The notes beneath the pieces are model-generated. The model saw only the letters and a list, made by a program, of their open reading frames with translations, did no database searches and was not told the origin of the DNA. Position numbers and translations under genes: made by a program. A stretch of DNA of 64,000 nt from Candidatus Latescibacterota bacterium (lineage in GTDB: Bacteria > Latescibacterota > UBA2968 > UBA8231): assembly GCA_965208105.1 (NCBI GenBank), contig OZ242318.1:3392001-3456000 (forward strand), read 5' to 3'. This document shows, one piece after another, positions 9,139 to 36,400 of this stretch (the stretch's first letter is position 1; each line of letters opens with the position of its first letter).

Positions 9139-9302
9139 GAGGGTCTCCTGGGTAGTGGATGGCGAATAAATGTCAAAAAGTGCTTCATTGCGCTAGTCTG
9201 GCGATATGGCGGCCTCGGGCGAATCCCCTGCAGCGGGTTGCCCCGCCCGCCTTTTGCCACGGAAATATAGGAAAGATTCGAGATTTGTTACAGGAAGCAT
9301 GG

Positions 9303-10466: not shown

Positions 10467-10580
10467 TGCCTGACGTCAGTTGAGTTGGTGTGAAGGGAGA
10501 AAGATATATCCATGCGGGTCGGAGGGTCAAGTTGAAATGGCCCCCAATGGATCATGGGGAGAAACGGGCCGGGGGAATGC

Positions 10581-11146: not shown

Positions 11147-12169
11147 CTAGTTCGGGAAGAGCCGGGTCATTTCGTCGGCGGCGAATTGCGGCAGGGGGAT
11201 CAGCCGGCCATCCCTGCGCAGTTGCAGGCCGAAGCGGGATTCGCGAACAGTGCCGATGCGGCAGGCGTGGATCCCCTCCTTTTCCAGGGCCGCGACAACT
11301 GGCGGGGCGCTGTCCTCGGGGCATCCGATCAGCAGGGCCCCCGAGGAAATGACGCCGAGAGGGTCCAGATCGAAGGCGCTGCAGAGGCGCGCGGACTCGG
11401 GGGAAATGCGGAGAGCGTGGGCATCGATCTCCAGGCCGACATCGGAGGCGGTTGCCAGTTCGGTCAGAGCGGTGGCTACGCCGCCTTCGGTGGGGTCGTG
11501 CATGGCGTGGACCTGGCCTGCCCGGCAGGCGATTGCAGCGTCGCGCACGACACTGATTCCCGGGTTTTCGAGGTAGCGCGAGCACAGGTCGAGAAAGCCG
11601 GCCGCATGCCCTTGCCGCAGTAGTTCAGCGCGTTTTTCCCGCGCTATGATGGCGGTGGCCTCTATGGCCAGGCCCTTTGTCAGGAGCAGGGCGTCACCGG
11701 GCCGCAGGCCGGAGGAGCGCACCAGGTTGCCGGGTTCGACCTCGCCGAGCATCTGGCCCACTACGATGGGGCGGTCGATGCCGGCGGTGATTTCGGTGTG
11801 TCCGCCGCAGACGGCAATGTCCAGCTGCCCGGCGGCGGCGTGGATGGAGCGGAAGATGGACTCGATCAGAGCGGGTGTGGCCTGCTCTTGCGGAAGCAGA
11901 ATGGTAGACAGGAAGAACCTTGGACGCCCGCCCATGGCCGCGATATCGTTTGCGTTTACGTTGACCGCGTACCAGCCGATGGCGTCGGAGGCGAAGGTAA
12001 TGGGGTCGGTCTTGGCCACCAGGTAGCGGTCCCCCAGGTCGATGACGGCGGCGTCCTCCCCCACCCCGGAAGGAACTACCAGGTCGGGGTGGAGGTGGGT
12101 GTAGCTGCGGATGAGGCGGGCGAGGACCTCGTGGGGGAGTTTGCCCGCGGGGTAGGTTTGGCCGGTCAT
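11147..12169 (-). CDS. AIR synthase/HypE-like family protein
   Basis: GEDAAV, KTDPIT, NANDIAAMG, GGHTE, MHDPTEGG. Confidence 0.88.
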   Translation of the reverse strand: MTGQTYPAGKLPHEVLARLIRSYTHLHPDLVVPSGVGEDAAVIDLGDRYLVAKTDPITFASDAIGWYAVNVNANDIAAMGGRPRFFLSTILLPQEQATPALIESIFRSIHAAAGQLDIAVCGGHTEITAGIDRPIVVGQMLGEVEPGNLVRSSGLRPGDALLLTKGLAIEATAIIAREKRAELLRQGHAAGFLDLCSRYLENPGISVVRDAAIACRAGQVHAMHDPTEGGVATALTELATASDVGLEIDAHALRISPESARLCSAFDLDPLGVISSGALLIGCPEDSAPPVVAALEKEGIHACRIGTVRESRFGLQLRRDGRLIPLPQFAADEMTRLFPN

Positions 12170-14973: not shown

Positions 14974-16446
<1,473 letters not shown>

Positions 16447-16495
16447 CTAAAGGCTCCTTGGTTGAAAATATGGAGTGGGTGAGGACAACCACAGG

Positions 16496-16527
16496 CGGCG
16501 CCGCAACTCAACCGAGTTGCGGCGCCG
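16496..16527. promoter_or_regulatory. Perfect 14-bp hairpin between the porin gene and glnA
   Basis: cggcgccgcaactc-aacc-gagttgcggcgccg; no U-tract on either side. Confidence 0.6.
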
Positions 16528-16608
16528 ACCTTGGTTTACAGAGGCCGCAGGGCAAGAAAGATTGCGGTGATCTCGACTGCGCTGGGGAAGTCTGAAGAAG
16601 CCTGGCTA

Positions 16609-17265
16609 CTAGAAACTCTTCCCGAATACGAGAAAGGTGGACTCGCGGTCCAGGTTGACTATATAGGAGGCCCAATAGTCGCCCTTGGCCATGGACACAC
16701 CCGCATTGGTCACCGGAATCGGCCCGTTTTCGGTTATGTAGTCGTCGGTGCCCCCACCGGCGAAAATGCTTACCCCGATACCCTCCATCTCGCCCAGATC
16801 GTATCCCAACTCGGCGTAGATGGAGCTCTGGCTCTCGCCTGCGTCATCCTCGGGCTCGAGCACGTTGACCGCCCCCGTCAGGCTGATGGGGCCCGAAGCG
16901 TAGGAGATCATGAGCTCGATGGTGTGAGCGCCGGTTGCGCTGTAGTCGAGGAACCCGTCGTCCTCGCCGAGGGCGGGGAAGAAGTAGTCGGTCGCGGTAA
17001 TGGCCAGTGGCCCGGCTGCATAGGTGATGTAGAGATCGTTCTCGTTGGCGCCGTTGGCGGTGATCCCCCAAGAGGACCAGGCGCCTATCTCTACCGATCC
17101 GGATCCATAGGAAAGATAGGGCTGGATGGACACGCCGTCGCCGAAATCCAGGCCGCGCCAGACGTAGCGGCTCACCAGGTCCGCCCCCATGCCTACACCG
17201 GCCTGGGCCGGAACGGCGCCGACAAGGGCCAGCAGGATTGCGTGGAAAATGAATTTCTTTGTCAA
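16609..17265 (-). CDS. Putative outer-membrane beta-barrel (TorF/TIGR02001-like porin)
   Basis: TTG start after GGAGGGG, signal peptide, DLVSRYVWRG motif, C-terminal Phe. Confidence 0.75.
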   Translation of the reverse strand: MTKKFIFHAILLALVGAVPAQAGVGMGADLVSRYVWRGLDFGDGVSIQPYLSYGSGSVEIGAWSSWGITANGANENDLYITYAAGPLAITATDYFFPALGEDDGFLDYSATGAHTIELMISYASGPISLTGAVNVLEPEDDAGESQSSIYAELGYDLGEMEGIGVSIFAGGGTDDYITENGPIPVTNAGVSMAKGDYWASYIVNLDRESTFLVFGKSF

Positions 17266-17342
17266 GATTCCCCTCCTTTGCTTGCCGGGCGGGAGAACAT
17301 GCCCGCCCGGCCGGGTGGTGACAGCAGTGAAATTACAGCCGT

Positions 17343-17681
17343 TCACAGCGCGCTTTCCCCGGTCTCTCCGGTGCGGATGCGCACGGCTTCCTCAACAGGG
17401 ACGACAAAGACCTTGCCGTCCCCCACTTTTCCGGTCTTGGCCGCCTCGACGATCGCGCTCACGGCCTGGTCGCGGTCGCCCGGCTTGACGGTGACTTCGA
17501 TCTTGATCTTGGGTACGAAGTCGACGCGGTACTCGGCACCCCGGTAGACTTCGCGGTGGCCGCGCTGGCGGCCAAAGCCGCGTACTTCGATGACGGACAT
17601 GCCGGCGATGCCCAGACCAGCCAGGGCGTCCTGCACCTGTTCGAGCGCGGCCGGGCGCAAAAAAGCTTCAATCTTGTACAT
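17343..17681 (-). CDS. glnK: P-II nitrogen regulator (GlnB/GlnK)
   Basis: GFGRQRG, YRGAEY T-loop (Tyr51), TGKVGDGKVF; directly after amtB. Confidence 0.93.
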   Translation of the reverse strand: MYKIEAFLRPAALEQVQDALAGLGIAGMSVIEVRGFGRQRGHREVYRGAEYRVDFVPKIKIEVTVKPGDRDQAVSAIVEAAKTGKVGDGKVFVVPVEEAVRIRTGETGESAL

Positions 17682-17699
17682 TGTTTTCCTCCTGCCGCA

Positions 17700-19025
17700 T
17701 CAATTGTGGATGGGGTGAAAGTCCGCATAGGAAGGCTGGCCGTGCTCGCCGGCGTCGAGGCCTTCCTCCTCTTCCTCCGCGCTGACGCGAATGCCCACAG
17801 CAGCTTTGATGAGCAGGATCAGGATGGCAGAGGCTGCGAAAGCGAAAAGGGAAATAGAGAGAGTTCCGACAATTTGCTTGAATAAGGTATGGTCTGCGTT
17901 GGTGCTGAACAGACCGACGGCAACCGTTCCCCAGACGCCGCAGATTCCGTGCACGGAGATGGCCCCGACCGGATCGTCGATTTTAATGCGGTCGATGCCC
18001 ACGATGGCGAAGACAACTATGATGCCGCTGATGAGACCGATGGCAATGGCGCCGATCCAGGTAACGCTATCGGCACCTGCGGTAATGCCCACAAGCCCCG
18101 CCAGCACGCCGTTCAGGGCCATGGTGATGTCGGGTTTTTTCAGGTAGGCCATCGAGGTGAACATGGCCGCAAGGCAGCCGGCCGCCGCCGCAAGGGAGGT
18201 GGTGGCGAAAACCAGGGATACGGCCGCGGGGTCCGCGCTGAGAACCGAGCCGCCGTTGAATCCGAACCATCCCAGCCAGAGCAGGAACACTCCGATTGTG
18301 GCAAGGGGCATACTGTGACCGAGAATGGGTCGGACCTGTCCATCCGCGGTGTACTTGCCGTTGCGGGGTCCCAGGAAGATAACGCAGGCCAGGGCGGAAA
18401 AACCGCCAAAAGCGTGGACGATGCTGGACCCGGCGAAATCGTAGAAACCGAGTTGGTCGAGCCAACCGCCTCCCCACTTCCAGGAGCCGGCGATCGGGTA
18501 GAAGAAGGCGACCAGCAAAGCGGCATAGACCATGAAACTGGTGAGTTTAACGCGCTCGGCTACCGCTCCCGAGACGATGGTGGCGGCGGTGGCCGCAAAC
18601 ATGGCCTGGAAAATAAAGTCAGACCAGTAGGTATAGTCGGCATAGGCGGAGGTGAGATTGGCGACCTGGTCGGTAAAACCGAGCGTTCCACCGATGGCGA
18701 TAAAGCCGTTGAAGTCGCCCGGGTACATGGTGTTGAATCCGGTCAGGGCGTAGGTGATCAGACCAACGGAGATGATGAACAGGTTTTTGAAGAGGATATT
18801 GACCGTATTCTTCTGCCGCGTAAGGCCCGATTCGAGGGTGGCGAAGCCGAGGTGCATGACAAATACCAAGGCTGCGGCAATCAATATCCAGAGGTTGTCT
18901 ACTATGAACTTGGGATAGACCAGTGGTGTGTTCTGGAACTCCTCCATTGACTTGATCTCGGCGCCCACTACCTGAGTGGCTCCTCCAAAGACCACAATCA
19001 ATGTCAATAACTTGAAAAACAACAT
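17700..19025 (-). CDS. amtB: Ammonium transporter
   Basis: FQAMFAAT, SGAVAER, DFAGS, WLGWFGFNGGS, DDPVGAISVHG. Confidence 0.97.
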   Translation of the reverse strand: MLFFKLLTLIVVFGGATQVVGAEIKSMEEFQNTPLVYPKFIVDNLWILIAAALVFVMHLGFATLESGLTRQKNTVNILFKNLFIISVGLITYALTGFNTMYPGDFNGFIAIGGTLGFTDQVANLTSAYADYTYWSDFIFQAMFAATAATIVSGAVAERVKLTSFMVYAALLVAFFYPIAGSWKWGGGWLDQLGFYDFAGSSIVHAFGGFSALACVIFLGPRNGKYTADGQVRPILGHSMPLATIGVFLLWLGWFGFNGGSVLSADPAAVSLVFATTSLAAAAGCLAAMFTSMAYLKKPDITMALNGVLAGLVGITAGADSVTWIGAIAIGLISGIIVVFAIVGIDRIKIDDPVGAISVHGICGVWGTVAVGLFSTNADHTLFKQIVGTLSISLFAFAASAILILLIKAAVGIRVSAEEEEEGLDAGEHGQPSYADFHPIHN

Positions 19026-19105
19026 CTTTGTCCCTCCCTTGGGTGATGGGTAATGGGGTCTGCTGCTTCAGGCCCGAGGTGAAAGGTGCGCGCTTGGGAT
19101 TTTTC

Positions 19106-19121
19106 AGCAAGGACTATGCCA
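19106..19121 (-). promoter_or_regulatory. sigma54 -24/-12 promoter of the amtB operon
   Basis: TGGCATAGTCCTTGCT (GG-N10-GC); IHF-like AATTAAAGGGTTA at 19163-19175. Confidence 0.8.
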
Positions 19122-19276
19122 GCGGCGGCACCAAAGCCAGGGAGGGGGGTTATGAGGCTGGTAATTAAAGGGTTATGCGAAATGCAACGGGCCATGGAGG
19201 AAGCTTATAAAGAGCGACAAAAATGGAAGTTATATCAAAAATATAACCAAATTTGTTGTTTTAACAATTTTGCAGT

Positions 19277-20824
<1,548 letters not shown>

Positions 20825-23072: not shown

Positions 23073-23945
23073 TCAGTAAGCCGGAGATTCCTCGACCAGG
23101 GACAGCAGCGCCTCGTAGCGGGCGGGGTGGCGTAGCTTGCTCAGGGCGCGCTCCTTGAGCTGGCGCACGCGCTCCCGGGTCAGGCTCATCATGCCGCCTA
23201 TCCGCTCCAGGGTGAGAGCTTCGTGGCCATCGAGCCCGAAGTAGAGACGGATGATGCGCAGCTCGCGCTCGTCCAGATTGACCAGCACACTCTCCAGCTG
23301 AGCCCGGGCCGAATCGCCGAGCACCTCTGTTTCCGGCGAAGCCTGATGAGGGTCGGACAGGATGTTGAGCAGGCTGCGCTCGTCGTCTTCGGTGAAGGCC
23401 TCGTCCAGCGAGCGCACCGTGCGCGCGCTCAGCAGGGTCTCCCGCACCTCCTCGGCCGACACGTCCAACTCCTGGGCGATCTCCTCCACGTCGGGCTCGC
23501 TTTCGCGTCCCTGGCCCAGCCGCCGCGCGGTTTTGGAGATGTCCTTGAGCAGGCTCACCTTGTTCATGGGCAGGCGCACGGTGCGGGCGTGCTCGGCGAT
23601 GCTCTGGAGGATGGATTGCTTGATCCACCATACGGCGTAGGAGATGAACTTGTAGCCCTTGGTGCCGTCGAAGCGCTCGGCGGCGGTGAGCAGGCCCACG
23701 TTGCCGGCGCTGATCAGGTCGGCCAGCGAGAGGCCGCGGTTCTGGTAGTTTTTGGCCACGTCGATGACGAATCGCAGGTTGGCCTGGACGAGTTCGTCGC
23801 GGGCGTCCCTGTGGCCCTCCTGGATGCGGGCGGAAAGTTCGACTTCGCGCTCGCGCGACAGCGGCCTCGAGTCGGCGATGTCGTCGAAGTAGAGACGCAA
23901 AGTGCTTTCCTCATCATTGAGGGCTTCCTGGATGACGTACCCCAT
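23073..23945 (-). CDS. Alternative sigma70 factor (RpoD/RpoS/RpoH-like, no region 1.1)
   Basis: ANLRFVI, DLISAGNVGL, KFISYAVWWIKQSI, LTRERVRQL. Confidence 0.93.
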   Translation of the reverse strand: MGYVIQEALNDEESTLRLYFDDIADSRPLSREREVELSARIQEGHRDARDELVQANLRFVIDVAKNYQNRGLSLADLISAGNVGLLTAAERFDGTKGYKFISYAVWWIKQSILQSIAEHARTVRLPMNKVSLLKDISKTARRLGQGRESEPDVEEIAQELDVSAEEVRETLLSARTVRSLDEAFTEDDERSLLNILSDPHQASPETEVLGDSARAQLESVLVNLDERELRIIRLYFGLDGHEALTLERIGGMMSLTRERVRQLKERALSKLRHPARYEALLSLVEESPAY

Positions 23946-24586
23946 TTCGTTTCCTGCTTTCGTTTGAATTTTTATCCGCTGCTGCTAACCGGCGAAGCCT
24001 GTATCAGCCTCGGGCAGGGGAAACCGGAAAAGCGCGCTGGAATCCCGCCTCGCCGCAAAGGTCAGCCGAAGCATCCGGAGCAGGGATTCGATTCCCCTGA
24101 ACATTCTCTCACAACTGCCGGAGGCAATCGACAGGAGTGAAGACAAAGTGCAAAAGTTGCATCAAGATCGGCAGCGCCGGAGGCTTGCCCGCTGGTGCCA
24201 GGCAGCATCCGATGATTGTACCGGGGCGATTGGAAATCCAATCCAGCCGGATCCGCTGGCCTGCCCCGGGCATTCATGCGGCATCAGGCTCAGGAGCGCC
24301 TTGAAACCAGGCGCCGCGGGAACCTGCTACCTCCAGCCGCCTGCTGCAGTAAAAATATTTTGACCATGATCCACTGGCGGATAAAAGTTCGAGAAAGTGC
24401 ATAAATTGCACAGGCTCCTCAACCTTACCCTGCAGCCCGGCGATCTCCATGGGCACTTCTGTCCGGGAACTGCCCGATCAATGGACCTCGATTTCAAAAG
24501 GCCCTTAGAACTCCTCGGGTTATCTTCTAGAACCTTTGACTTCACCCCGGGGTTCCGTGGCCTTCTGCGCCCTCTGCAAAGAATCC

Positions 24587-24602
24587 TGCAAATTCGGTGC
24601 CA
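24587..24602 (-). promoter_or_regulatory. sigma54 -24/-12 promoter
   Basis: TGGCACCGAATTTGCA; AT tract at 24611-24631 and TGCA-N5-TGCA at 24701-24713 upstream. Confidence 0.78.
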
Positions 24603-24791
24603 GAGACCGAATTATTTTTTTAACTTACTTTCTCGCCATAGGTTAGGAACTTGGCAAGCTGTCTCCGGGCGGGCATGGGCGACTCGAGAAAGGCAAATAA
24701 TGCAACATTTGCATGCCCCTCCCAAGTGGCGGAGCAAGCGCGGAAGGCGGATCCGGGTCCGGAGCCGGGGGGAAAGGCCGGTGGATTGGCC

Positions 24792-26150
24792 TCAGTGAAT
24801 CCCGTACTGCTTCAATTTGTACTGGAGGGAGCGCAGACTGATTCCGAGGATGGAAGCGGCGCGGCGCCGGTTGGAGGTGACCCGGTGCAGGGTCTGGCGG
24901 ATGAGTTCGGCCTCCGCTTCCCTGACCGAGGTCCCCAGTTTGAGGGTGAACTGGCCGAGAGCCTGGTCAGTTGCGGCAAGGATGCCGGGAAGGTGCTCGG
25001 GTCTGATGGTTTTGCTCGGGCAGGTGACCACCAGGCGCTGGATCAAGTTGCGGAGCTCACGCACGTTGCCCGGCCAGGAGTGGTGGAGAAAATGCGCCAT
25101 GCTCTCAGGAGCCACCTGCTTGAGGGCCTGGCCATGGGCTCGACATGACTCCTCGAGGAAGATCTCCACCAGCACGGGGATGTCTTCATGGCGCTTGCGC
25201 AGAGGGGGAATGTCGAGGGGCACCACGTTGAATCGGTAGTAGAGATCTTCGCGGAAGTTGCCCCGGTCCACGTCCGTTTCCAGGTCGCGGTTGGTCGCGG
25301 CGATAAAGCGGACATCGGCACGGTGGAGATGGGAGTCGCCGACGGGCTGATATTCGGAGTTCTCGAGGGCCCGCAACAACTCGACCTGGTTCTTCAGGGG
25401 CACCTCGCCGATTTCGTCGAGAAAGAGGGTGCCGCCTTCGGCCAGGGCGAATCTTCCGGGCTTGTCGGTGAGAGCTCCGGTGAAGGCGCCGCGGACATGC
25501 CCGAAGAGCTCGCTGGCGAAAAGCTCTTGGGGGAAGCCTCCGCAATTCACCGCCACGAAGGGGCCGTCCCGTCTCCTGCTGCGCTCGTGAATTGCGCGGG
25601 CGATCAAATCCTTGCCCACCCCGGTCTCGCCGCGCAGGAACACGGGGACGTCGGACATGGCCACCTGCTTGATGGTTGTCGCCGCAGCCTGCATTGCCGG
25701 GCTGTGCCGCACGATTTTGCGAAAACTGTCCCGGTTCTCCAGGCGGCTTTGCAGCTGGCGGTTGGCGGCGACCAACTCGAGGCGGCCCAGGGCGCGCTCG
25801 ACCAACAGGCCCAGGTGGGAGAGATCCAGGGGCTTGGCTATGAAGTCGTAGGCACCTTTCTTCATGGCCTCCACGGCGGTGGAGATATTGCCGTCCTTGG
25901 TCAGGACGATTATGTGAGTATCGGGATCGGAGTTGCGGATCTCTTCGAGCAGCTCCATGCCCCCGGGACCGGGAAGGCCGAGGTCCATGACCACCAGATC
26001 GTAGGATTTCTCCCGGATCATCCTGCGGGTTTGATGCCCGTCCGCGGCCATCTCCGCCTTGAGCTTGGTTTTGTGCAGGGCTTTCCTCAGTCCATTGCGG
26101 ATAAAGGCCTCGTCGTCGGCTATGAGAATTTGAACTTTGCGCTTTGTCAT
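24792..26150 (-). CDS. NtrC-family sigma54-dependent response regulator
   Basis: REC (ADDE, MDLGLP, FIAKP), GETGVGKD, SELFGHVRGAFTGA, HTH; no kinase gene nearby. Confidence 0.93.
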   Translation of the reverse strand: MTKRKVQILIADDEAFIRNGLRKALHKTKLKAEMAADGHQTRRMIREKSYDLVVMDLGLPGPGGMELLEEIRNSDPDTHIIVLTKDGNISTAVEAMKKGAYDFIAKPLDLSHLGLLVERALGRLELVAANRQLQSRLENRDSFRKIVRHSPAMQAAATTIKQVAMSDVPVFLRGETGVGKDLIARAIHERSRRRDGPFVAVNCGGFPQELFASELFGHVRGAFTGALTDKPGRFALAEGGTLFLDEIGEVPLKNQVELLRALENSEYQPVGDSHLHRADVRFIAATNRDLETDVDRGNFREDLYYRFNVVPLDIPPLRKRHEDIPVLVEIFLEESCRAHGQALKQVAPESMAHFLHHSWPGNVRELRNLIQRLVVTCPSKTIRPEHLPGILAATDQALGQFTLKLGTSVREAEAELIRQTLHRVTSNRRRAASILGISLRSLQYKLKQYGIH

Positions 26151-26176: not shown

Positions 26177-26908
26177 ATGAATGACGCAGATCGGATAGAG
26201 GAACGCAAGCGGCGGATCCGGGAGATGTTCAATGCCATTGCCGGCCGCTACGACTTGTTGAACCACCTGCTCAGCGGAGGCGTGGACATTTACTGGCGCC
26301 GCCGGGCATTGAACGAGGTGCGGCATCCCCGGCCGCGGCAGGTTCTGGATCTGGCGACCGGAACGGGTGATTTCGCTCTTGCGGCGAGCAGACTGCGTCC
26401 GCGCCGGGTTTTTGGAGTGGACGTTTCCATGAGCATGCTGCGGCTTGGCGCGGCAAAGGTCGGCAGGCGACCGCAGGCGGGGTCCGTATTCCTGCTGGCC
26501 GGGGACGCCGAAGAGCTGCCTTTCGCCGGGAACAGCTTCGACCTGGTAATGGGTGCATTCGGCGTTCGAAATTTCGGTCATATTCCCACTGGCATGAAGG
26601 AGGCCTGGAGGGTGCTCAGACCGGGAGGAGAGATCCTGGTCCTGGATTTTTCAGAGCCGGCACTTCCCCTGTTCAAACAGGCCTATCGCTTTTATTTCAA
26701 GCGGGTCCTGCCTCTTTTAGGGGGGCTCGTTTCAGGGAACCGCCGGGCCTATTCCTACTTGCCGCAATCGGTAGATACTTTTCCCCAGGGGTGGGCGTTC
26801 GAGAAACTGCTCGAAGGGGCCGGATTCGTCGAGACCAGGACGACGCCTTTGACCCTTGGAATCTCTGCCGTTTACCAGGGCAGGAAGCCCGGGAAGCCGG
26901 TTGACTAA
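26177..26908 (+). CDS. menG: Demethylmenaquinone methyltransferase (MenG/UbiE)
   Basis: YDLLNHLLS, LDLATGTGD, FGVRN, AYSYLPQS. Confidence 0.93.
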   Translation: MNDADRIEERKRRIREMFNAIAGRYDLLNHLLSGGVDIYWRRRALNEVRHPRPRQVLDLATGTGDFALAASRLRPRRVFGVDVSMSMLRLGAAKVGRRPQAGSVFLLAGDAEELPFAGNSFDLVMGAFGVRNFGHIPTGMKEAWRVLRPGGEILVLDFSEPALPLFKQAYRFYFKRVLPLLGGLVSGNRRAYSYLPQSVDTFPQGWAFEKLLEGAGFVETRTTPLTLGISAVYQGRKPGKPVD

Positions 26909-26965
26909 TGTGAGGCCGGTAGGTATTATGTGGTCGCGTTTCCAGGGGGAATACGGAGCCTATTC

Positions 26966-28093
26966 GTGCTATTCGAAGAACAGATCGACAGGGCTGGACT
27001 GGCCGAAGTGCACCGCACCATACGGGAGGGCGGACGTCTCAGCATGGATCAGGGGATGCAGCTCTACGCCTGCGACCAACTGCCGGTGCTGGGATACCTC
27101 GCCAATATGGTGCGCGAGCGGTTCAATGGAAATATGACCTACTACGTCCGCAACCAGCACATCAACTACACCAATATCTGCAACAAGCTTTGCAGGTTCT
27201 GTTCCTTCTACGTGAAGCCCAAGGATGAGCGCGGCTACGTTCTCTCCCCGGAACAGATTCAGGACCGTCTGGCCGAGTACTGCGACCTCCCCATAACCGA
27301 GATCCACATGGTGGGCGGCGTCAATCCCAGGCTGCCGTACGAGTATTACCTCGATGTCCTGCGCGCGATGAAGGAAGCCCGTCCCGATGCGCATCTGAAG
27401 GCGTTCACCATGATCGAGTTGGCCCAGATTCAGCGCATTGCCAAAAAACCCCTGGAAGAGGTGCTGGAGGACCTGAAGGAAGCCGGACTAGAAAGCCTCC
27501 CCGGCGGCGGAGCCGAGGTGTTCAGCGCGCGGGTGCAGGGCGATCTGTTCTGGACCAAGAGCGACTCGGAGGAATGGCTGCGAACCGCGGCGGCAGCCCA
27601 CCGGGCCAAGTTGCCCACCAATGCCACCATGCTGTACGGCCACATCGAGAACACCGAGGAAAAGGTCTATCACCTGGTCCGCCTGCGCGAGGTGCAGGAT
27701 GAGACTGGTGGATTTTTGGCCTACATCCCACTCTCCTTTCATCCGGAACGCACCGAGCTGGAGGATTTGCCCGGACCCACGGGCGCGCTCGACCTCAAGG
27801 AGATCGCCGTCGGGCGTCTGATGCTGGACAATTTTCCTCACGTCAAGACCTTCTGGATCATGAACACCATCGAGATCTCCCAGACGGCGCTCTGGTACGG
27901 GGCAGACGATATCGACGGCACGATCATGGACTACGAAATCACGCGGCGCAGCTACGAGGAGACCCGGCAGCGCCTGACTCAGGCGGAGCTGCTCGAGCGC
28001 ATCGTCGAAGCCGGACGGGTTCCGGTGGAACGGGACAGCCTGTACAATCTGGTTGCCGGCGGTCCCGGGTTGCCCCGGGCCGTTGCGGGCTGA
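26966..28093 (+). CDS. mqnE: Aminofutalosine synthase (radical SAM)
   Basis: CNKLCRFC, EIHMVGG, PGGGAE, LMLDNFPHVKTFW; GTG start after GGAG. Confidence 0.9.
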   Translation: MLFEEQIDRAGLAEVHRTIREGGRLSMDQGMQLYACDQLPVLGYLANMVRERFNGNMTYYVRNQHINYTNICNKLCRFCSFYVKPKDERGYVLSPEQIQDRLAEYCDLPITEIHMVGGVNPRLPYEYYLDVLRAMKEARPDAHLKAFTMIELAQIQRIAKKPLEEVLEDLKEAGLESLPGGGAEVFSARVQGDLFWTKSDSEEWLRTAAAAHRAKLPTNATMLYGHIENTEEKVYHLVRLREVQDETGGFLAYIPLSFHPERTELEDLPGPTGALDLKEIAVGRLMLDNFPHVKTFWIMNTIEISQTALWYGADDIDGTIMDYEITRRSYEETRQRLTQAELLERIVEAGRVPVERDSLYNLVAGGPGLPRAVAG

Positions 28094-28104
28094 AGAAGGA
28101 AGAA

Positions 28105-29247
28105 ATGATCGAGGATATTGCCGATAAGATTTACCGCGGAGAACGTCTCGAACTGGACGACGCGCGCCGCCTCTACCACCACCCCAATCTCGCCGAGCTG
28201 GGGATGATGGCCAGTTGGGTGCGCCGGAGCAGGCATCCGGAGCCATTGGTCACCTACAATGTGGGACGCAACATCAACTACACCAACGTATGCTGGGTCA
28301 GGTGCGACTTCTGCGCCTTTTACCGTCCCCCCGGGTCGGAGGAGGGATATGTGCTTTCCCATGAGGAAATCTTCGCCAAGATCGACGAACTCGTCCTGTT
28401 CGGAGGCGACGAGCCGAAGTCGTGCGAGATCCTCATGCAGGGGGGACTGAATCCGAAGCTGCGGCTGGAGTACTACGAGGAACTGCTGAAGGCCATCAGC
28501 ACGCGCTATCCCATGGTCCAGTTGCACTGCCTGTCGGCCACCGAGATCATCTACATCGCCCATATTTCGCGGCTTCCGCTGGAGGAGACCGTCCGGCGCC
28601 TGGCCGCGGCGGGCCTCGACTCCATCCCCGGAGCCGGGGCGGAGATCCTCGACGACGAGGTGCGGGATATCATCGGTTTCCGCAAGGACCGCAGCGACGA
28701 GTGGCTGCAAGTTCACCGCGTCGCCCACGGGCTGGGCATGCGCACCACCGCCACAATGATGTACGGGCATGTGGAGTCGGTTGACCAGCGTTTGGGACAC
28801 CTGCAGCGCCTGCGCGATCTCCAGGACGAAACCGGAGGTTTCCGCGCCTTCATCACCTGGAGTTTTCAACCCGACGAGACCGCCCTGGCCGCGGACAAAG
28901 ACCGCTGGAACGGCCTGAAAGCCACCGGCTACGACCACCTGCGGACGGTTGCCGTCAGCCGCCTCTTTCTCGACAATGTCGACAATATCCAGGCTTCCTG
29001 GGTCACCCAGGGCCCCAAGATCGCCCAGGTCAGTCTGCATTACGGGGTCAATGACTTCGGCAGCACCATGCTCGAAGAGAACGTGGTGAGCGCCGCCGGC
29101 ACAAGCCACACCAACGAGATGGATCTCGAAGCCATGGAGCGGCTCATCCGCGGCGCAGGTTACGAGCCTCGCCGCCGCAATACCCGCTATGAATTCGTCT
29201 CCACCTCTCCGCGCCCGGAGGCGCTGAGAAAGGCGGCCCTTGCGTGA
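28105..29247 (+). CDS. mqnC: Cyclic dehypoxanthine futalosine synthase (radical SAM)
   Basis: RNINYTNVCWVRCDFCAFYR, QASWVTQG, DFGSTMLEENVV. Confidence 0.92.
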   Translation: MIEDIADKIYRGERLELDDARRLYHHPNLAELGMMASWVRRSRHPEPLVTYNVGRNINYTNVCWVRCDFCAFYRPPGSEEGYVLSHEEIFAKIDELVLFGGDEPKSCEILMQGGLNPKLRLEYYEELLKAISTRYPMVQLHCLSATEIIYIAHISRLPLEETVRRLAAAGLDSIPGAGAEILDDEVRDIIGFRKDRSDEWLQVHRVAHGLGMRTTATMMYGHVESVDQRLGHLQRLRDLQDETGGFRAFITWSFQPDETALAADKDRWNGLKATGYDHLRTVAVSRLFLDNVDNIQASWVTQGPKIAQVSLHYGVNDFGSTMLEENVVSAAGTSHTNEMDLEAMERLIRGAGYEPRRRNTRYEFVSTSPRPEALRKAALA

Positions 29248-30047
29248 GCGTCCGCCTGCGGGCGGTGTCGTATTTGAACTCGCGTCCGCTGACTATTTCC
29301 CTCGAAAACAATCCGGCCTTCGAGTTGAGCTATTCCGTGCCCTCGGTTTGCGCCGCCGATCTTGAGGCCGGACGCGCCGACCTGGGACTGATCCCTTCCA
29401 TCGAATACGCGCGCAGCCGTGAGCCATATTACATTGTCCCGGATGTGGCAATAGTCAGCCGTGGCGAGGTACTGACGGTGCGGCTGTTCTGGCGAGGCGA
29501 TTTGCGCAGGGTGAAGCGCATCGCCCTGGATACGAGTTCGCGGACCGCGGCGGCCCTTCTGCACATACTCCTGCGCGAGAAGTTTCGCCTGGCGCCCGAG
29601 TTTGCGGAAGCAGGGCCTGCACTCGAGACCATGCTCGAGAGCGCAGACGCGGCGCTGCTCATCGGCGACCCCGTATTTCAGTTCATCGACACCGACCTGG
29701 ACTGCATGGACCTCGGGCAGGTCTGGACCGAATTTTCGGGGCTGCCTTTCGTATTCGCTTTTTGGGCAGGCCGGAGAGGGGTTGTGAATCCCGGGCAGGT
29801 CGTGGCATTGAAGGAAGCCAGACTCGCCGGGGAGGAGCAGGCAGCGGCGATCGCCCGCAAGTACAGCCGGGACTCCGCAAGATCTGCCGGGTTCTACGAG
29901 CGCTATCTCACCGGCAACATCTCCTTCGATTTCGGGGAAGCCGAAATCGAAGGGTTGTACGCGTTCTACCGCCTGGCACAGCGGCACGGCCTGATCGAGG
30001 CAGTGCCGGCACTCAGATTTTACGAGAGCGACGAGGTCCGTGCATAG
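29244..30047 (+). CDS. mqnA: Chorismate dehydratase
   Basis: VSYLNSRPL, SSRT, ALLIGD, LPFVFAFW. Confidence 0.9.
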   Translation: MSVRLRAVSYLNSRPLTISLENNPAFELSYSVPSVCAADLEAGRADLGLIPSIEYARSREPYYIVPDVAIVSRGEVLTVRLFWRGDLRRVKRIALDTSSRTAAALLHILLREKFRLAPEFAEAGPALETMLESADAALLIGDPVFQFIDTDLDCMDLGQVWTEFSGLPFVFAFWAGRRGVVNPGQVVALKEARLAGEEQAAAIARKYSRDSARSAGFYERYLTGNISFDFGEAEIEGLYAFYRLAQRHGLIEAVPALRFYESDEVRA

Positions 30048-30944
30048 ATGATGAACCCACTGAGCGCGATCGCCGTCTACGGGCGCATGATCAAGTTTTC
30101 GCACAGCATCTTTGCCTTGCCCTTCGCCCTCAGCGGTGCCGCCCTGGCTGCTGCCCAGGTCGGGATCCGGCTCGATCAGCTGGGTTGGATCATCGCGGCC
30201 ATGGTCGGTGCGCGCAGCGCGGCGATGGGATTCAACCGATTGGTAGACCGGGGTATCGACGCGGAAAATCCGCGCACCCGGAACAGGGAACTGCCCCGAG
30301 GGGTTGTTTCCCCTCCGGCCGTGGCGGTATTTGTCCTGCTTTCGGGGGGAGTCCTGATCTGGGCGGCCCGGGAGCTCAATCCCCTCTGCTTTTACCTGTC
30401 GCCTCTGGTCCTGGCGGTCCTCCTCCTGTATTCCTACACCAAGCGTTTCACCTGGGCTTCCCATCTGGTTCTGGGCTTGTGTCTGGGGGGGGCGCCCGTG
30501 GGCGCCTGGATTGCCGTTACGGGTGGCTTCGGGCTTGCTCCCTTCCTGCTCGGCCTGGCCGTACTTTCCTGGGTTGCCGGGTTCGACGTAATCTATGCCT
30601 GCATGGACCGCGACTTCGATCTGCGCTCTGGTCTGCACTCGATTCCGGTGCGGTTCGGCATTGCCCCCGCCCTGCGGATTGCGCGCTTTCTTCACGTCCT
30701 CGCCACCCTGTTTCTGGTGGCCGTGGGGCTGGTGGCACAGTTGCACGCGCTCTACTTTTTCGGCATCGCGGTCATCGCCGGACTTCTCGTGTATGAGCAT
30801 CGCCTGGTGAGCCCCCGGGACATGTCCCGGGTGGGAATGGCCTTTCTCACCATGAACAGCACAGTCAGTACCGTCTACCTTGCCTTCACCCTGGCGGACC
30901 TGGTGATACTGGGCGACCCATGGACTCTCTTACAACTCGATTGA
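30048..30944 (+). CDS. UbiA-like prenyltransferase (MqnP-type)
   Basis: [41 protein letters not shown]. Confidence 0.92.
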
Positions 30945-30975
30945 ACTGAAACAAATCCGAGGGAATGCCGGAGAA

Positions 30976-32991
30976 ATGAGCAAAGACAGCGATCGCCGGG
31001 GAGGGTTTGGCCCGATCCTCGACTCTGAAGACGAGTCCATCTTTTCGACTCGCACCAAAGCCCCGGGTCCCCAGGGGAAATTGCCGTTGCAGGCCGAAGA
31101 GGTCGTCAACTCGCCCAGCGGCCATATCTTTGCGTACAGCCAGAACGCCGGCATGGGCTGGAATCCTTCCGAGCTTGGCCGCAGGGAATTCCTGATCCTC
31201 AGTACCCTGGGCGGCCTGCGGGCAGCGGATGGCCGGCCTATCGCCCTGGGCTATCACACGGGCCACTGGGAGGTAGGCCTGCTCGTGGAAGCGGCAGCCG
31301 AGGAGATCCACCGCAGGGGCGGGATTCCCTATGCCGGGTATTGCTCCGATCCCTGCGACGGGCGCACCCAGGGGACGGCCGGCATGTTCGACAGCCTGCC
31401 CTACCGCAACGATGCGGCCACGGTACTGCGTCGCCTCGTCCGCTCCTTGCCGACTCGCAAGGGCGTCATGGGGGTGGGCACATGCGACAAGGGGCTTCCA
31501 GCCGTGATGATCGCCCTGGCCGGGATGCGTGAACTCCCCGTGATCGTGGTGCCCGGCGGAGTTACCCTCCCCCCGGAGCATGGAGAGGATGCGGGCAAGA
31601 TTCAATCCGTGGGCATGCGCCTTGCCCATGGGGAAATGACCCTGGATGAAGTAAACGACCTGGGCTGCCGGGCTTGCGCTACCGCCGGCGGGGGCTGCCA
31701 GTTCCTGGGAACGGCGGCCACTTCCCAGGTTGTGGCCGAGGCCCTGGGGTTGAGCCTTCCCCACTCCGCCCTGGCACCCTCCGGCCAGGCAGTCTGGCTC
31801 GATATGGCGGTTCGGTCCGGACGCGCGCTGATGGAATTGGAGGCTGCAGGCGTTGCTTCCAGCCAGATTTTGACCGATGCCGCGTTTCAAAATGCCATGG
31901 TGGTTCACGCCGCCTTTGGCGGCTCGACCAACCTGGTCCTTCACATTCCGGCGATTGCCCATGCCGCCGGCCGGAGGCGTCCGATGGTGGAGGACTGGGA
32001 CCGGATCAACCGGCAGGTCCCGCGGCTGGTGGACGTCCTGCCCAATGGGCCCCTGTTTCACCCGACTGTCCGGGTCTTTCTTGCCGGCGGGGTCCCCGAG
32101 GTCATGCTCCACCTGCGGCGCATGGGTCTTCTGCAAGAGGACGTGCTTACGGCGAGCGGCCGGACTCTGGGCGCGAACCTCGATTGGTGGGAGCAGTCCG
32201 AGCGGCGGCGGAAGTTCCAGCAAAGGTTGGAGGAACTGGACGGGGTGCCCTGCGAAGAGGTGATCATGGGGCTGGAGCGGGCCCGGCGCAGGGGATTGAC
32301 CAGCACCGTCTGCTTCCCCAGGGGCAACTTGGCTCCCGAGGGTTCGGTAATCAAGAGTACGGCCATCGATCCGACCGTGGTGGATGAGGACGGGATCTAT
32401 CGGCACAGGGGCCCGGCCAGGGTCTTCGCCACCGAACGGGAAGCCATGGCGGCGCTCAAGTCCCGCCAGATCAAAGCCGGAGACGTGATGGTGCTGCTCA
32501 GTTGCGGTCCCCTCGGCACTGGAATGGAGGAAATCGCACAGATCACCATTGCGCTCAAGTACGTGGACTATGGCAAACACGTTGCGGTGCTCACCGACGC
32601 GCGGTTCTCAGGGATTTCCACCGGCGCCTGCATCGGCCACATTGGACCTGAAGCACTGGCCGGAGGTCCCATAGGCAAGGTCGTCGACGGAGACCTCATC
32701 GAGATCGAAATCGACCGCGGCCGCTTGCGGGGCCGCATTGACCTTGTCGGGCATGGGGACGAAGTCTTCGGCCCGGCCAAAGGGGAACGCCTGCTCGCCC
32801 GGCGTCACCCGCGTTCCGACCTGGCGCCCGAAGAGCTGCTTCCGGACGACACCCGGCTCTGGGCGGCCCTGCAGAATGTCGGCGGCGGAACCTGGGGCGG
32901 GTGCGTTTATGATGTGGATGCGATCATCGAAACCCTGGAGGCCGGGCGCAAAGCCCTCGCCCCGCCGCAGGTCGACGGAGAGGCTTCATGA
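30976..32991 (+). CDS. YjhG/YagF family D-xylonate dehydratase (IlvD/Edd family)
   Basis: [46 protein letters not shown]. Confidence 0.9.
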
Positions 32992-33602
32992 GTGGCAGAC
33001 AGGTAATCGTCGGCGTGACCGGGGCGAGCGGCGCGCTCTACGCCGGCCGCCTTTTGCGAGCCCTTCTGGTTCTGGGACACACCGTCCACCTGGTGCTTTC
33101 CAGGTACGGGCGGTTTCTGCTGCACGAGGAACTGGAGTTCCGCCCCGACCAGGAGTCGGTACTGCAGTTTCTGGTGCGCCTCTACGGCCGGGAAGTTCAG
33201 CAGGGGGAGTTGCGGGAGTACGGCTTCAACGATCTCGCCTGTACTCTTGCCAGCGGCTCCGTTCCCGTCGACGGCATGGCGGTTGTCCCCTGTTCGGCCA
33301 AGACCCTGTCGGGAATTGCCCGCGGCGCCGCAGGCAACCTGATCGAGCGGGCAGCGGACGTCACCCTGAAGGAGCGCCGTCCCCTCGTTCTCGTTCCCCG
33401 AGAGACACCGCTCAACCTGATCCAGCTGCGCAATCTCGCAACGGTGGCAGAGGCCGGTGGAATCATTGTGCCCGCCATGCCGGCATTCTATCAGAAGCCT
33501 CGAACCTTCGATGATTTGGGAGATTTCATCGCCGGCCGCGTGTGCAACCTTCTAGGGATCGAGCATGACCTCTTCCCGAGTTGGCCAGGATCGAAGGGGT
33601 AG
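32988..33602 (+). CDS. ubiX: Flavin prenyltransferase
   Basis: [33 protein letters not shown]. Confidence 0.94.
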
Positions 33603-33699
33603 GCGGGAGGGTTTTCGGATTCCGATGGTCCGGGCGGACTCTTCCGAAACGCGCTTTCAGGGTGCCGTCGATTTTTGCTTTCGGTAGATGCCGGGAACG

Positions 33700-33800
33700 G
33701 GCGGGCAGCCCAGGTATGGAAGGGGGATCCGGGGGCTCCATCTGCGTGAGGAGTGGCAGACGGTTAAGGAGGGAGACCTTGCCCCCGGATCCCTTGCTCC
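33700..33800 (-). ncRNA. Putative sigma54-dependent sRNA (3' end uncertain)
   Basis: Predicted +1 at ~33800; 13-bp closing stem with two internal hairpins carrying CU-rich loops; no credible ORF. Confidence 0.55.
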
Positions 33801-33810
33801 CCGTTCCGGA

Positions 33811-33826
33811 TGCAAAGAGGGTGCCA
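33811..33826 (-). promoter_or_regulatory. sigma54 -24/-12 promoter between convergent genes
   Basis: TGGCACCCTCTTTGCA; IHF-like AAACAAGAAGTTA at 33857-33869; palindrome AACCATGT-N6-ACATGGTT at 33903-33924. Confidence 0.78.
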
Positions 33827-34193
33827 GAGTTGATCCCCGTTTCTGTCAAATTCCTTTAACTTCTTGTTTTTCAATCACCTAAAAAAATGAAACTCTTTGC
33901 AGAACCATGTGATACTACATGGTTTTTCGTGATAATGAAGGCATTATGTTGTGCAGGCGATGATCGGTCGCACAAAATGTGGACGTGGAGGCGAGGACCG
34001 GGAGGGAGAGCGCGGGGAAAGAGGAAAATCTGCACTTCAGAGCTGAAAATATTTCCCACCCCGGTTGGATTCAGGGCGAGTAAGGTGCCTGGGATCGAGG
34101 GCAGGGACAGGGGTGCCGGGGAATGGAATCCGATCTCACCTGCGTGCAGGGAAAAAATTTCTCATGCCAGGATGAGGACAGGTTTGCAGGGGT

Positions 34194-35654
34194 TCACATT
34201 TGCAGTTTGGCCAGCTGCGGGCGGAGTAGTTGGCGCGGCAGCATGGCCTTGAGGAGGGTAGGCCCTCCCAATTGCACCAGGCCGCGGCACAGGGTCCAGC
34301 AGCCGTGGCGGCAGAGGACCTCCCCTTTGAAAGGTGATCCCTGTTTCAGTTCCAGCGATTCACCCCGGAAGAGAGTTTGCACCTGCGGCCAGGTCAACTC
34401 CAAAGACGGCCCCTGCATTTCTCCTCCCCACATGGTGACGGCTTGTTGGCTCAGGTAGTAGTGGTCCTTGTGGCTGCGGGCGATCCGCATTCCGCCCCTG
34501 ACGTAGAATGGAAATTGGCGCTTGAAGGCAGCTGTTTCGCGGGGCTGAAGGCAAAGGTGGCGGCCGTCCATCGCGAGGAGTTGACCCGGCGGGCAGGGCG
34601 GCTCGAAATTCCAGTGAGCTCGCAAATGACGCCTGGCCCGATCCGCTTCGGGGTCGGACTCCGCGGCGGGAATCCACGAACCGTTGTCGGCGTCGCACCT
34701 GGTCCAGGCGGTCTCTCCCAGTTTTCGGATGCGGGCGACGAAGGCCCCCTCGGTGTCGTGCAGGTGAGGCCAGACCCGGGCGCAGCCGGCCAGGGTTGTC
34801 GGGTAGCGCATTGCAAATTCGGAGGGCAGCGGAACCAGGTCGATGCCCTCGACCTTCAGGACTTCGGTTATGTCCGGATTTTTTTTAATCAGCCCCAGAA
34901 GCACGTCCTCGTTTTCCTCCAGGGAAAGGGAGCAGGTTGAGTAAACCATCGTACCGCCTGGGCGCAGCATGTGGAAGGCCGCCCTCAGCAGCCCGGTTTG
35001 CTGCTGGGCCTGGCGCCGGGAGTCCGCAACCGACCAGTAGCGCAACATGCCGAGGTCCTTGCGCACGATGCCGTCGCCGCTGCAGGGAGCGTCGAGGAGG
35101 ATGCGATCGAAGAAATTGTGGAAATAGCGTGCCAACAGGGTGCCCGGGGCCTTGGTCACGATGGCGTTGGCCACCCCGCATCGCTCGAGATTTCCCACCA
35201 GCCCCGGGATGCGTTTGCCCTGGGGTTCGTTGGCAACCAGCAGTCCGCTGTTTTCCATGCCGGCGGCGATCTGGGTGGCCTTGCCTCCGGGTGAAGCGGC
35301 GAGGTCGAGAATGCGTTCGCCCGGACGGGGATCCAGGGCCGTTACCGCCAGGGTAGCGGCCTTGGCCTGGATGTAGAATCCCCCCAGGGCGTACTCGAGT
35401 GTGTGCCCGGGGGAGACGAGGGAGCCGGGCAGATCAAAGGCGTGCTCGCACCAGGGCGCCTGCCCGCCGTCCTCCAACAACCCAGGCAGCAGATTCGCGG
35501 CCGGGGGCATCAGTGGGTTGAGACGCAGGCTGGAAGGAGGTGGGGTCAGCGAGCAGCGGCGGAAGGCCTGGCGCTGAGCGCTGTCCGGAAGCAGTTGCTC
35601 GAGGTGGTGAAGGAGGTCCTGCAGCCGGGTCTGCTCCCCGTCCTCTTTGCGCAT
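34194..35654 (-). CDS. RsmB/RsmF (NOL1/NOP2) RNA m5C methyltransferase
   Basis: LDLAASPGGKA, LDAPCSGDG, YSTCS, ENEDV; start uncertain. Confidence 0.9.
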   Translation of the reverse strand: MRKEDGEQTRLQDLLHHLEQLLPDSAQRQAFRRCSLTPPPSSLRLNPLMPPAANLLPGLLEDGGQAPWCEHAFDLPGSLVSPGHTLEYALGGFYIQAKAATLAVTALDPRPGERILDLAASPGGKATQIAAGMENSGLLVANEPQGKRIPGLVGNLERCGVANAIVTKAPGTLLARYFHNFFDRILLDAPCSGDGIVRKDLGMLRYWSVADSRRQAQQQTGLLRAAFHMLRPGGTMVYSTCSLSLEENEDVLLGLIKKNPDITEVLKVEGIDLVPLPSEFAMRYPTTLAGCARVWPHLHDTEGAFVARIRKLGETAWTRCDADNGSWIPAAESDPEADRARRHLRAHWNFEPPCPPGQLLAMDGRHLCLQPRETAAFKRQFPFYVRGGMRIARSHKDHYYLSQQAVTMWGGEMQGPSLELTWPQVQTLFRGESLELKQGSPFKGEVLCRHGCWTLCRGLVQLGGPTLLKAMLPRQLLRPQLAKLQM

Positions 35655-35725
35655 CTCTCGGCGCGGTTCTTTATTCTCCACAATGATTTTTATCTTAGGC
35701 ACGCCCCTCGAGCAGGGCAAGAAGA

Positions 35726-36400
35726 ATGGGTTCCCAACATTCATTCATAATCAGTGATCTGCACCTCGGCTCGGAATTTTTCTGCAGGGAGAAGTTCCTG
35801 TCCTGGCTCGACGGTTTGGAGCCCGAGGCTCAGTTGATCCTCAACGGCGACATCATCGAGGATTCCGCCGCGGCTCTCTGTGCCGGGCATCGGGCCGTTC
35901 TCGAACGCCTGGTCCAGGAGTCACACCGCCGGCCTCTCGTGTGGATCTACGGCAACCACGACGCCGACGTGGTCCTGGAGGACTCAGGCCGGATCAAGTT
36001 CGCCCACCAGTGGGCGATCGGGCAACGGTTGCTGGTCATGCACGGAAATTCTCTGGACAAGATCATGCCCAGGCACAGGGTCTTTAAGAAGCTCTTCAGT
36101 TTCTTTCACCACGTGCTCATGTCCCTGGGATTTCAGAGAATGCACGTTGCCCAGTACGCCAAGAAGTGGGCTTTCCTCTACCAGTTTCTGAACAGGCACG
36201 TGGCGGAGGAGGCCCTCCGCGTAGCGCGGGAGAAGGGATTCGAGGCCGTGACCTGCGGGCACACCCATGCGGCCATGGAAATCAGGCAGGATGGACGCCG
36301 CTACCTCAACACGGGTGCCTGGACCGAGGAGCCTCTGCATTACGTCGCGGTCAATGCGCGGGAGATCGGATTGCACATCTATGACGGCAGGCTGGCGTGA
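35726..36400 (+). CDS. Metallophosphoesterase (LpxH-like)
   Basis: SDLHLG, NGDI, GNHD, HG, GHTH, NTGAW. Confidence 0.85.
   Translation: MGSQHSFIISDLHLGSEFFCREKFLSWLDGLEPEAQLILNGDIIEDSAAALCAGHRAVLERLVQESHRRPLVWIYGNHDADVVLEDSGRIKFAHQWAIGQRLLVMHGNSLDKIMPRHRVFKKLFSFFHHVLMSLGFQRMHVAQYAKKWAFLYQFLNRHVAEEALRVAREKGFEAVTCGHTHAAMEIRQDGRRYLNTGAWTEEPLHYVAVNAREIGLHIYDGRLA

Follow-up and report, generated by a model that had tools for sequence, protein, structure and literature searches.

A probable sigma-54-dependent structured RNA gene with C/U-rich, anti-Shine-Dalgarno-like loops in Candidatus Latescibacterota

The DNA analyzed here, referred to as the window, is a 64,000-nucleotide stretch of a Candidatus Latescibacterota contig. 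It contains, between ubiX and a gene for an RsmF-like methyltransferase of the NOL1/NOP2/Sun family, a 591-bp gap in which a predicted structured RNA and its putative promoter lie on the minus strand, facing ubiX and co-directional with the methyltransferase gene (Table 1). Across the promoter region, the GC content is 0.445, compared with about 0.63 in the surroundings, and no open reading frame (ORF) of at least 20 amino acids starts between the predicted transcription start and the end of ubiX in the window. The gene ubiX itself belongs to a run of menaquinone/prenyl-cofactor genes adjoining the RNA, which includes genes for UbiE, two radical-SAM proteins of the CofH/MqnC type, a VitK2_biosynth (MqnA-type) protein, UbiA, a dehydratase of the IlvD/Edd family and UbiX.

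Table 1. Positions of the features discussed, in the window and in the related loci (L001 to L008)
Sequence	Feature	Position	Strand	Remarks
Window	ubiX (UbiX)	32988-33602	plus	convergent with the RNA
Window	Gap with RNA core and promoter	33603-34193	minus	591 bp; convergent ubiX on one side, co-directional RsmF-like gene on the other
Window	C-rich stretch, RNA core to ubiX end	33603-33723	minus	47% identity to L001
Window	Conserved RNA core, 70 nt	33724-33793	minus	fold, covariance-model match, covariation
Window	P1, closing stem	33793-33781 with 33736-33724	minus	perfect, 13 bp
Window	P2, first inner hairpin	33780-33777, loop 33776-33770, 33769-33766	minus	AAGG, loop UCUCCCU, CCUU
Window	P3, second inner hairpin	33763-33756, loop 33755-33746, 33745-33738	minus	CCGUCUGC-CACUCCUCAC-GCAGAUGG
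Window	Predicted 5' leader	33794-33800	minus	GGAGCAA; start placed by sigma-54 geometry
Window	Sigma-54 box TGGCACCCTCTTTGCA	33826-33811	minus	TGGCAC-N5-TTGCA (-24/-12), perfect match
Window	IHF-like site AAACAAGAAGTTA	33869-33857	minus	one mismatch to WATCAANNNNTTR; inside a 66% A+T spacer
Window	Activator-type dyad AACCATGT-N6-ACATGGTT	33924-33903	minus	conserved core AYGTRGTAYCAYRT at 33920-33907
Window	9-nt perfect inverted repeat TGCAAAGAG/CTCTTTGCA	33811-33819 and 33893-33901		links -12 box to dyad flank
Window	Conserved DNA blocks upstream of the dyad	33943-34057	minus	aligned in all 8 sequences
Window	Block GGGAAATATTTTC	34057-34045	minus
Window	Block CAGATTTTCC	34032-34023	minus
Window	Block CCACATTTTGTG	33982-33971	minus
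Window	Block CATAAT	33948-33943	minus
Window	RsmF-like NOL1/NOP2/Sun methyltransferase gene	34194-35744	minus	upstream of the RNA, co-directional
Window	Menaquinone/prenyl-cofactor gene run	26177-33602	plus	adjoins the RNA
Window	Sigma54_activat gene, response-regulator type	24792-26150
Window	Palindrome ATGCAAATGTTGCAT	24714-24700		upstream of the second perfect box
Window	Second perfect sigma-54 box TGGCACCGAATTTGCA	24602-24587	minus	just downstream of the response-regulator activator gene
Window	RpoS/RpoD-like sigma-70-family gene	23073-23945	minus
Window	Nitrogen cluster	14974-20824	minus
Window	Sigma54_activat gene, GAF/NifA-like type	19277-20824	minus	in the nitrogen cluster
Window	Nitrogen cluster box TGGCATAGTCCTTGCT	19121-19106	minus	one mismatch
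Window	P-II start	~17680	minus	in the nitrogen cluster
Window	Ribosome-binding site AAGGAGGGG	17278-17270	minus	5 nt ahead of a TTG start
L001	Match to model R1	11957-12039		95.5 bits
L002	Match to model R1	11894-11977		99.5 bits
L003	Match to model R1	11837-11899		28.4 bits
L005	Match to model R1	10051-10131		51.6 bits
L006	Match to model R1	13048-13133		53.4 bits
L007	Match to model R1	10080-10163		73.5 bits
L008	Match to model R1	2194-2277		91.8 bits
L002	CUCCCC-loop hairpin (1)	11980-12011	RNA strand	then U-run
L003	Tandem CUCCCC-loop hairpins (3)	12108-12222	RNA strand	U-run after the last
L005	CUCCCC-loop hairpins (3)	10341-10454	RNA strand	U-run after the last
L008	Tandem CUCCCC-loop hairpins (5)	2680-2990	RNA strand	U-run after the last
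L003	Small ORF	11919-12092	RNA strand
L005	Small ORF	10151-10324	RNA strand
L007	Small ORFs	10180-10386, 10438-10614	RNA strand
L008	Small ORFs	2300-2491, 2505-2711	RNA strand
L006	Inserted DNA, RsmF-like gene to RNA module	~11377-12760		coding-looking
L007	Inserted DNA, RsmF-like gene to RNA module	~8594-9790		coding-looking

The RNA core consists of a perfect closing stem (P1) that encloses two hairpins, P2 and P3. An earlier note on this DNA had described these elements, and folding confirms all of them. The minus strand folds with -51.2 kcal/mol (z = -4.2), a value equalled by none of 200 shuffled sequences, and the plus strand with -51.8 kcal/mol (z = -2.1; 6 of 200 shuffles as good). Given that the two strands have about the same energy, the fold energy alone cannot set the strand. 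Instead, the assignment to the minus strand is based on the promoter, on the scores of the covariance model described below (100.3 bits for the minus strand of the window vs 23.4 for the plus strand) and on the G-U pairs, for which the earlier note had argued from a single pair: summed over pairs in the 8-sequence alignment, 20 G-U cells would turn into A-C mismatches on the opposite strand. Transcription from sigma-54 promoters usually starts about 12 nt past the C of the -12 GC, which would place the start of the RNA near 33800. The leaders of the homologs in L002, L003, L005 and L008 are about 25 nt longer and carry UCCUCU-like motifs. Downstream of the core, where the stem is followed by CCUUCCAUA, no terminator-like site was found on the minus strand of the window. 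The GC skew of the plus strand is positive there (+0.155 to +0.222 in the 200-nt segments 33500-33699 and 33600-33799), so that the RNA strand is C-rich downstream of the core, and transcription may end within this stretch in a Rho-dependent manner.

The RsmF-like protein, used as a query against species-representative genomes, retrieved 8 loci (L001 to L008; protein identity 50-76%), labeled as 4 Candidatus Latescibacterota metagenome-assembled genomes, 2 Gemmatimonad genomes and 2 genomes of an “uncultured bacterium”. One of these, L004, is cut at the contig end inside the RsmF-like gene and was left out, so that the comparison covers 8 sequences, the window and 7 loci. A covariance model built from the window, L001, L002 and L008 (R1) matches a single RNA in the window and a single one per locus in the 7 loci, in the orientation of the RsmF-like gene throughout, with scores of 28-100 bits, and its reverse-strand matches do not exceed 23 bits. 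The gene order around the RNA is conserved (Mrp, M23 peptidase, phosphoesterase, RsmF-like gene, RNA, ubiX, ubiA, mqnA), with a convergent ubiX downstream of the RNA in every locus that has it; all 8 sequences thus represent one conserved gene neighborhood. The earlier note had left the conservation of promoter and structure to a search for homologs; both recur, the RNA in all 7 assessable loci and the -24/-12 boxes in all 8 sequences.

In the 8-sequence alignment (A5), 95.9% of the 193 pair cells are standard pairs, compared with 35-52% after a shift of the 3' partners by 1-3 columns; these figures lean toward the structure, because the sequences are relatives and their alignment had been made to fit the model. 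Eight pairs have changed on both sides, a number reached by none of 500 shuffles in a control that is inflated by the relatedness of the sequences. RNAalifold independently recovers P1, with 5 of its 13 pairs covarying, and P3, whose 8 pairs are almost invariant (4 never change). By contrast, the 4 pairs of P2 are formed in 85% of the cells, are dropped by RNAalifold and are missing in L003, so that the three-way junction proposed in the earlier note is conserved only in part. CUCCUC in the loop of P3 is invariant in all 8 sequences, and a CUCCC-type stretch is present between P1 and P3 in 7 of the 8. The comparison between the window and L001 shows 66 identical positions among the 70 of the core, with intergenic flanks at 47-54% identity. 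The 4 differences retain pairing (G-C to A-U, G-C to G-U) and alter the only in-frame peptide, which starts with the ATG at 33741 (EPPDP in the window vs ESSDP in L001), indicating selection on an RNA rather than on a protein.

The location of a hairpin between convergent genes, where terminators are common, would be compatible with the absence of any RNA gene, the gap then holding a promoter remnant, a small coding frame, or an element that is a repeat or a terminator. We regard this explanation as highly improbable, given that promoter, dyad and structure are shared by species in which the RsmF-like proteins have 50-76% identity, and that the substitutions preserve base pairs, not codons. 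Furthermore, the element is present in a single copy per locus: a second model (R2), built from all 8 sequences and run unfiltered, detects the copy in the gap and no other in the 64 kb, and a search of a plasmid collection in distant mode gave no match. Thus, judged from sequence comparison, the gap very probably contains a real sigma-54-dependent structured RNA gene.

The sigma-54 promoter reported in the earlier note is complete, with a perfect box in the window, where TGGCACN5TTGCW occurs twice without mismatch (0.05 expected; 0 of 100 shuffles reach 2) and 4 times with one mismatch allowed (1.68 expected; 6 of 100 shuffles reach 4). TGG(C/T)AC-N5-TTGC is present, and GG-N10-GC kept, in 8 of 8 sequences. 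The IHF-like site and the palindrome that the same note had placed farther upstream are likewise there. Within the window alone, the match of the IHF-like site is not significant (91 of 500 shuffled spacers contain one as good), and the site gains weight only because its position is conserved: in 5 of the 8 sequences, the center of a same-strand match to the IHF consensus with at most one mismatch lies upstream of TGG at a distance of exactly 37 nt; the match in L003 is perfect, and L005 has a site with 2 mismatches at the same position. The A+T content of the spacer is 66-76% across the sequences. The core of the palindrome, an activator-type dyad, is conserved in the relatives, and L007 has a perfect ACGTG-N4-CACGT. 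In 6 of the 8 sequences, the dyad center is 87-89 nt ahead of TGG; L001, with 97 nt, and L007, with 77 nt, each deviate by one helical turn (about 10 bp). This placement fits a putative upstream activator site about 80-150 bp away on a fixed face of the helix, and the predicted control region is a classic layout of enhancer, bend and -24/-12 boxes. A perfect inverted repeat of 9 nt connects, in the window, the -12 box with the DNA flanking the dyad; the corresponding position of L001 does not show it.

Conservation extends farther upstream, to several DNA blocks with the motifs GGGAAtTTTTT, cAgATTTTTCC, CCACATCTTGTG and, 19-21 nt past TTGTG, (C/T)ATAnn across the 8 sequences. These blocks have no conserved RNA fold (-1.36 kcal/mol) and accompany the RNA module in L006 and L007, in which about 1.5 kb of other DNA parts the module from the RsmF-like gene. 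The insertions comprise about 1.2-1.4 kb of coding-looking DNA that is alike in the two loci. TTGTG and (C/T)ATAnn resemble a -35/-10 pair directed at the RNA.

Sigma-54 appears to be in use in this genome region, given that the window contains two Sigma54_activat genes, one of the response-regulator type and one of the GAF/NifA-like type, and two other near-consensus boxes outside coding sequence, both ahead of genes. Among the roughly 66 of 132 window ORFs of at least 150 amino acids that were scanned against Pfam, none was named sigma-54. In L001, L002, L003 and L005, the gene for the response-regulator activator is likewise found in synteny, at a distance of about 8 kb, and its product was considered as the regulator of the RNA; the promoter just past this gene, however, has a different palindrome, and the dyad of the RNA has no further occurrence in the window, so that it was not assigned to the RNA.

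The sequences differ most in what follows the RNA. In L006, UUUUUUG comes directly after the closing stem and is followed by the convergent ubiX; this homolog is a predicted stand-alone sRNA with a putative intrinsic terminator. Hairpins with CUCCCC loops lie on the same strand downstream of the RNA in 4 loci: 5 in tandem in L008, 3 in L003, 3 in L005 and 1 in L002, the last of each set being followed by a U-run. Their stems are 11-17 bp long in L003, L005 and L008; in L002, the one extra hairpin is the terminator hairpin, with the loop UCUCCCCU. No such hairpins were found elsewhere in these 4 loci. The RNA is further followed on the same strand by a small membrane-type ORF of 57-68 amino acids (ORF-A) in L003, L005, L007 and L008, and by a second small ORF, of 58-68 amino acids (ORF-B), with the motif LRWY..QL..LP...LPSKR.W, in L007 and L008. 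Neither matches a family in Pfam or NCBIfam. The window has neither the extra hairpins nor the small ORFs. Thus, the description of the transcript as gene-less in the earlier note holds for the window, L001, L002 and L006 and fails for the 4 loci with small ORFs.

Because small ORFs follow the RNA in 4 of the 7 relatives, it could be a leader there. The corresponding general explanation is that the RNA acts in cis, as the 5' leader or attenuator of an operon for small proteins, and was retained or left as a relic where the ORFs were lost, as in the window. The 42% identity of ORF-B between L007 and L008 fits this scenario, as does the arrangement in L007, where a U-rich tract past the closing stem precedes an ORF with a GAGGA site. 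Yet the window, L001, L002 and L006 are without an ORF and keep the RNA, with 94% identity and compensatory changes; transcription in L006 would terminate right after the stem, and the small ORFs match no family. We therefore consider a leader unlikely as the general explanation, and a cis leader or riboswitch was rejected for the window itself, where no ORF of at least 20 amino acids starts between 33800 and the end of ubiX.

Comparison with known RNAs yielded no homolog. In a gathering-threshold scan of the window with Rfam 15, tRNA was the only match, and the same scan of the 8 related loci gave nothing. A scan of 33550-34250 with E-values up to 10 returned 11 chance-level matches, the best with 20.7 bits against a threshold of 64. 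Below threshold, the tandem array of L008 matches ar7 with 32.2 bits (threshold 60) and ar14 with 24.5 and 19.8 bits (threshold 58.8). GlmY, CrcZ and NrsZ are sigma-54-dependent sRNAs, and the unpaired, C-rich motifs of RsaE/RoxS from Firmicutes would form pairs with ribosome-binding sites that are rich in G. RsaE/RoxS are not sigma-54-driven and have no match in sequence or structure here, and membership in Qrr, GlmY/GlmZ, CrcZ or other Rfam sRNA families was rejected for lack of a covariance-model match. In genetic layout, the RNA resembles the Qrr1-5/LuxO type, with a stand-alone sRNA gene, a -24/-12 promoter and an upstream activator site, a candidate one in the present case; it differs in structure and seed. 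Qrr is reported to require LuxO and sigma-54 (10.1101/2021.07.01.450815).

In its loops, the RNA resembles the ar14/cuckoo sRNAs of Alphaproteobacteria (NfeR1, CcsR1-4), which share unpaired C/U-rich anti-Shine-Dalgarno loops and a variable number of hairpin modules. These ar14/cuckoo sRNAs are reported to form 2-4 adjacent hairpins with CCUCCUCCC in each loop (PMC4615179), silence mRNAs at the ribosome-binding site through these loops (PMC10746234) and occur in tandem arrays beside small protein genes, within 5' or 3' UTRs (PMC8034643, PMC4615179, PMC10746234). There is, however, no homology between the two. The window RNA has no match to RF02344 at E-values up to 10; its motif is CUCCUC or CUCCC(C/U), and its loops, UCUCCCU and CACUCCUCAC, are not CCUCCUCCC. 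Whereas ar14 hairpins stand next to each other, those of the window RNA are enclosed by a 13-bp stem; its promoter is of the sigma-54 type rather than RpoHI/HII- or LsrB-dependent, the phylum is different, and the small ORFs of the relatives are not DUF1127. We conclude that this is a new RNA family, which would work like ar14 with a Qrr-type promoter logic and is not a member of ar14.

We propose that an enhancer-binding activator would occupy the conserved dyad, which lies about 88 bp ahead of the -24 box, and would be brought to the polymerase by an A+T-rich bend of the IHF type. The transcript, beginning near 33800, would fold into the long closing stem, which leaves UCUCCCU(CCUU) and the invariant CUCCUC loop as C/U-rich, unpaired stretches. 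These anti-Shine-Dalgarno-like stretches contain CUCC, complementary to the core GGAG of a ribosome-binding site, and could pair with GGAG-type sites of mRNAs and block their translation, as ar14/cuckoo sRNAs do. A trans-acting, base-pairing repressor is favored because the promoter, the scaffold stem and the unpaired CUCC(U/C)C are constant and because ar14/cuckoo sRNAs provide a precedent. From these comparisons, we put the chances of anti-Shine-Dalgarno pairing as the mechanism at about even, and the full explanation, a sigma-54-driven sRNA gene acting in this way, is just as evenly poised.

Duplex energies of the two loop stretches with the 42 translation-start regions of the window do not separate the real loops from controls: the mean is -11.17 kcal/mol, compared with -10.85 +/- 0.69 for shuffled loops and -10.69 inside genes, and 24 of the 42 starts reach -10 kcal/mol or lower, compared with 23.9 for shuffled loops. 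The strongest duplexes form at GGGAGG-type ribosome-binding sites, those of hemD, amt, a GNAT gene, a gene for outer-membrane efflux and the gene at 17264 for the exported protein with the TTG start. The porin ribosome-binding site AAGGAGGGG that the earlier note had offered as a local target does exist, and the match is as non-specific as was stated there, the sequence being one of 4 copies in the window. Shine-Dalgarno use in the host organism is uncertain; a crude count over a noisy set that includes shadow frames finds a core of at least 4 nt in 27 of 95 candidate frames, against a background of 17%.

The CUCC(U/C)C loops, tandem in some relatives, might alternatively titrate an RNA-binding protein. 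CsrB/RsmZ and CrcZ titrate proteins via other motifs, and CrcZ is a sigma-54-driven decoy. The stem of P3 barely varies, beyond what structure would require, so that a protein could read it, and the hairpin modules with the same loop motif vary in number from 1 to 5. It is this near-invariance of P3, in stem and loop alike, that gives a decoy some weight. The explanation comes without a candidate protein, however, and the motif is exactly complementary to GGAG; a decoy of the CsrB/RsmZ type with GGA repeats in its loops was rejected, the loops being C/U-rich and without GGA. Moreover, base pairing is the mode of action reported for known RNAs with loops of this kind (PMC10746234, PMC8034643). 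A protein-binding decoy therefore appears to us unlikely, if slightly less so than a cis-acting leader. More speculatively, the RNA and the tandem CUCC-loop hairpins might mimic the 3' end of 16S rRNA and, upon a sigma-54 signal, soak up mRNAs with strong Shine-Dalgarno sequences or a factor that reads the anti-Shine-Dalgarno sequence. We hold this to be a long shot, below the decoy and the leader; were it true, translation would shift between messages with and without Shine-Dalgarno sequences in a lineage, labeled Latescibacterota and Gemmatimonad, where their use looks mixed, and it would be no coincidence that the RNA keeps its place next to a gene for a 16S rRNA methyltransferase.

To our knowledge, Latescibacterota is a phylum known only from metagenomes. 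A full-text literature search found no description of a regulatory RNA in this phylum, and Latescibacter is mentioned in none of the papers that it listed. The RNA reported here is a candidate derived from sequence, unusually complete in that it combines a helically phased sigma-54 control region, a covarying structure and a fixed C/U-rich loop; it constitutes a solid new family, without a new principle. The covariance model is ready for surveying related genomes, and the candidate activator site offers an entry to the signal pathway. If the base-pairing repressor is real, the design known from Alphaproteobacteria, in which hairpin modules of variable number carry anti-Shine-Dalgarno loops and lie next to small ORFs, would have been invented independently a second time.

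Two further regions of the window carry sigma-54 signatures. The second perfect box lies just downstream of the response-regulator activator gene, about 640 nt upstream of the gene for an RpoS/RpoD-like sigma factor of the sigma-70 family, so that the region 23073-26150 looks like a cascade from sigma-54 to a sigma-70-family factor with a long leader. The nitrogen cluster comprises the genes for the GAF/NifA-like activator, amt, P-II, an exported protein with a TTG start and the ribosome-binding site AAGGAGGGG, and glnA, and its box, with one mismatch, stands ahead of amt, P-II and glnA.
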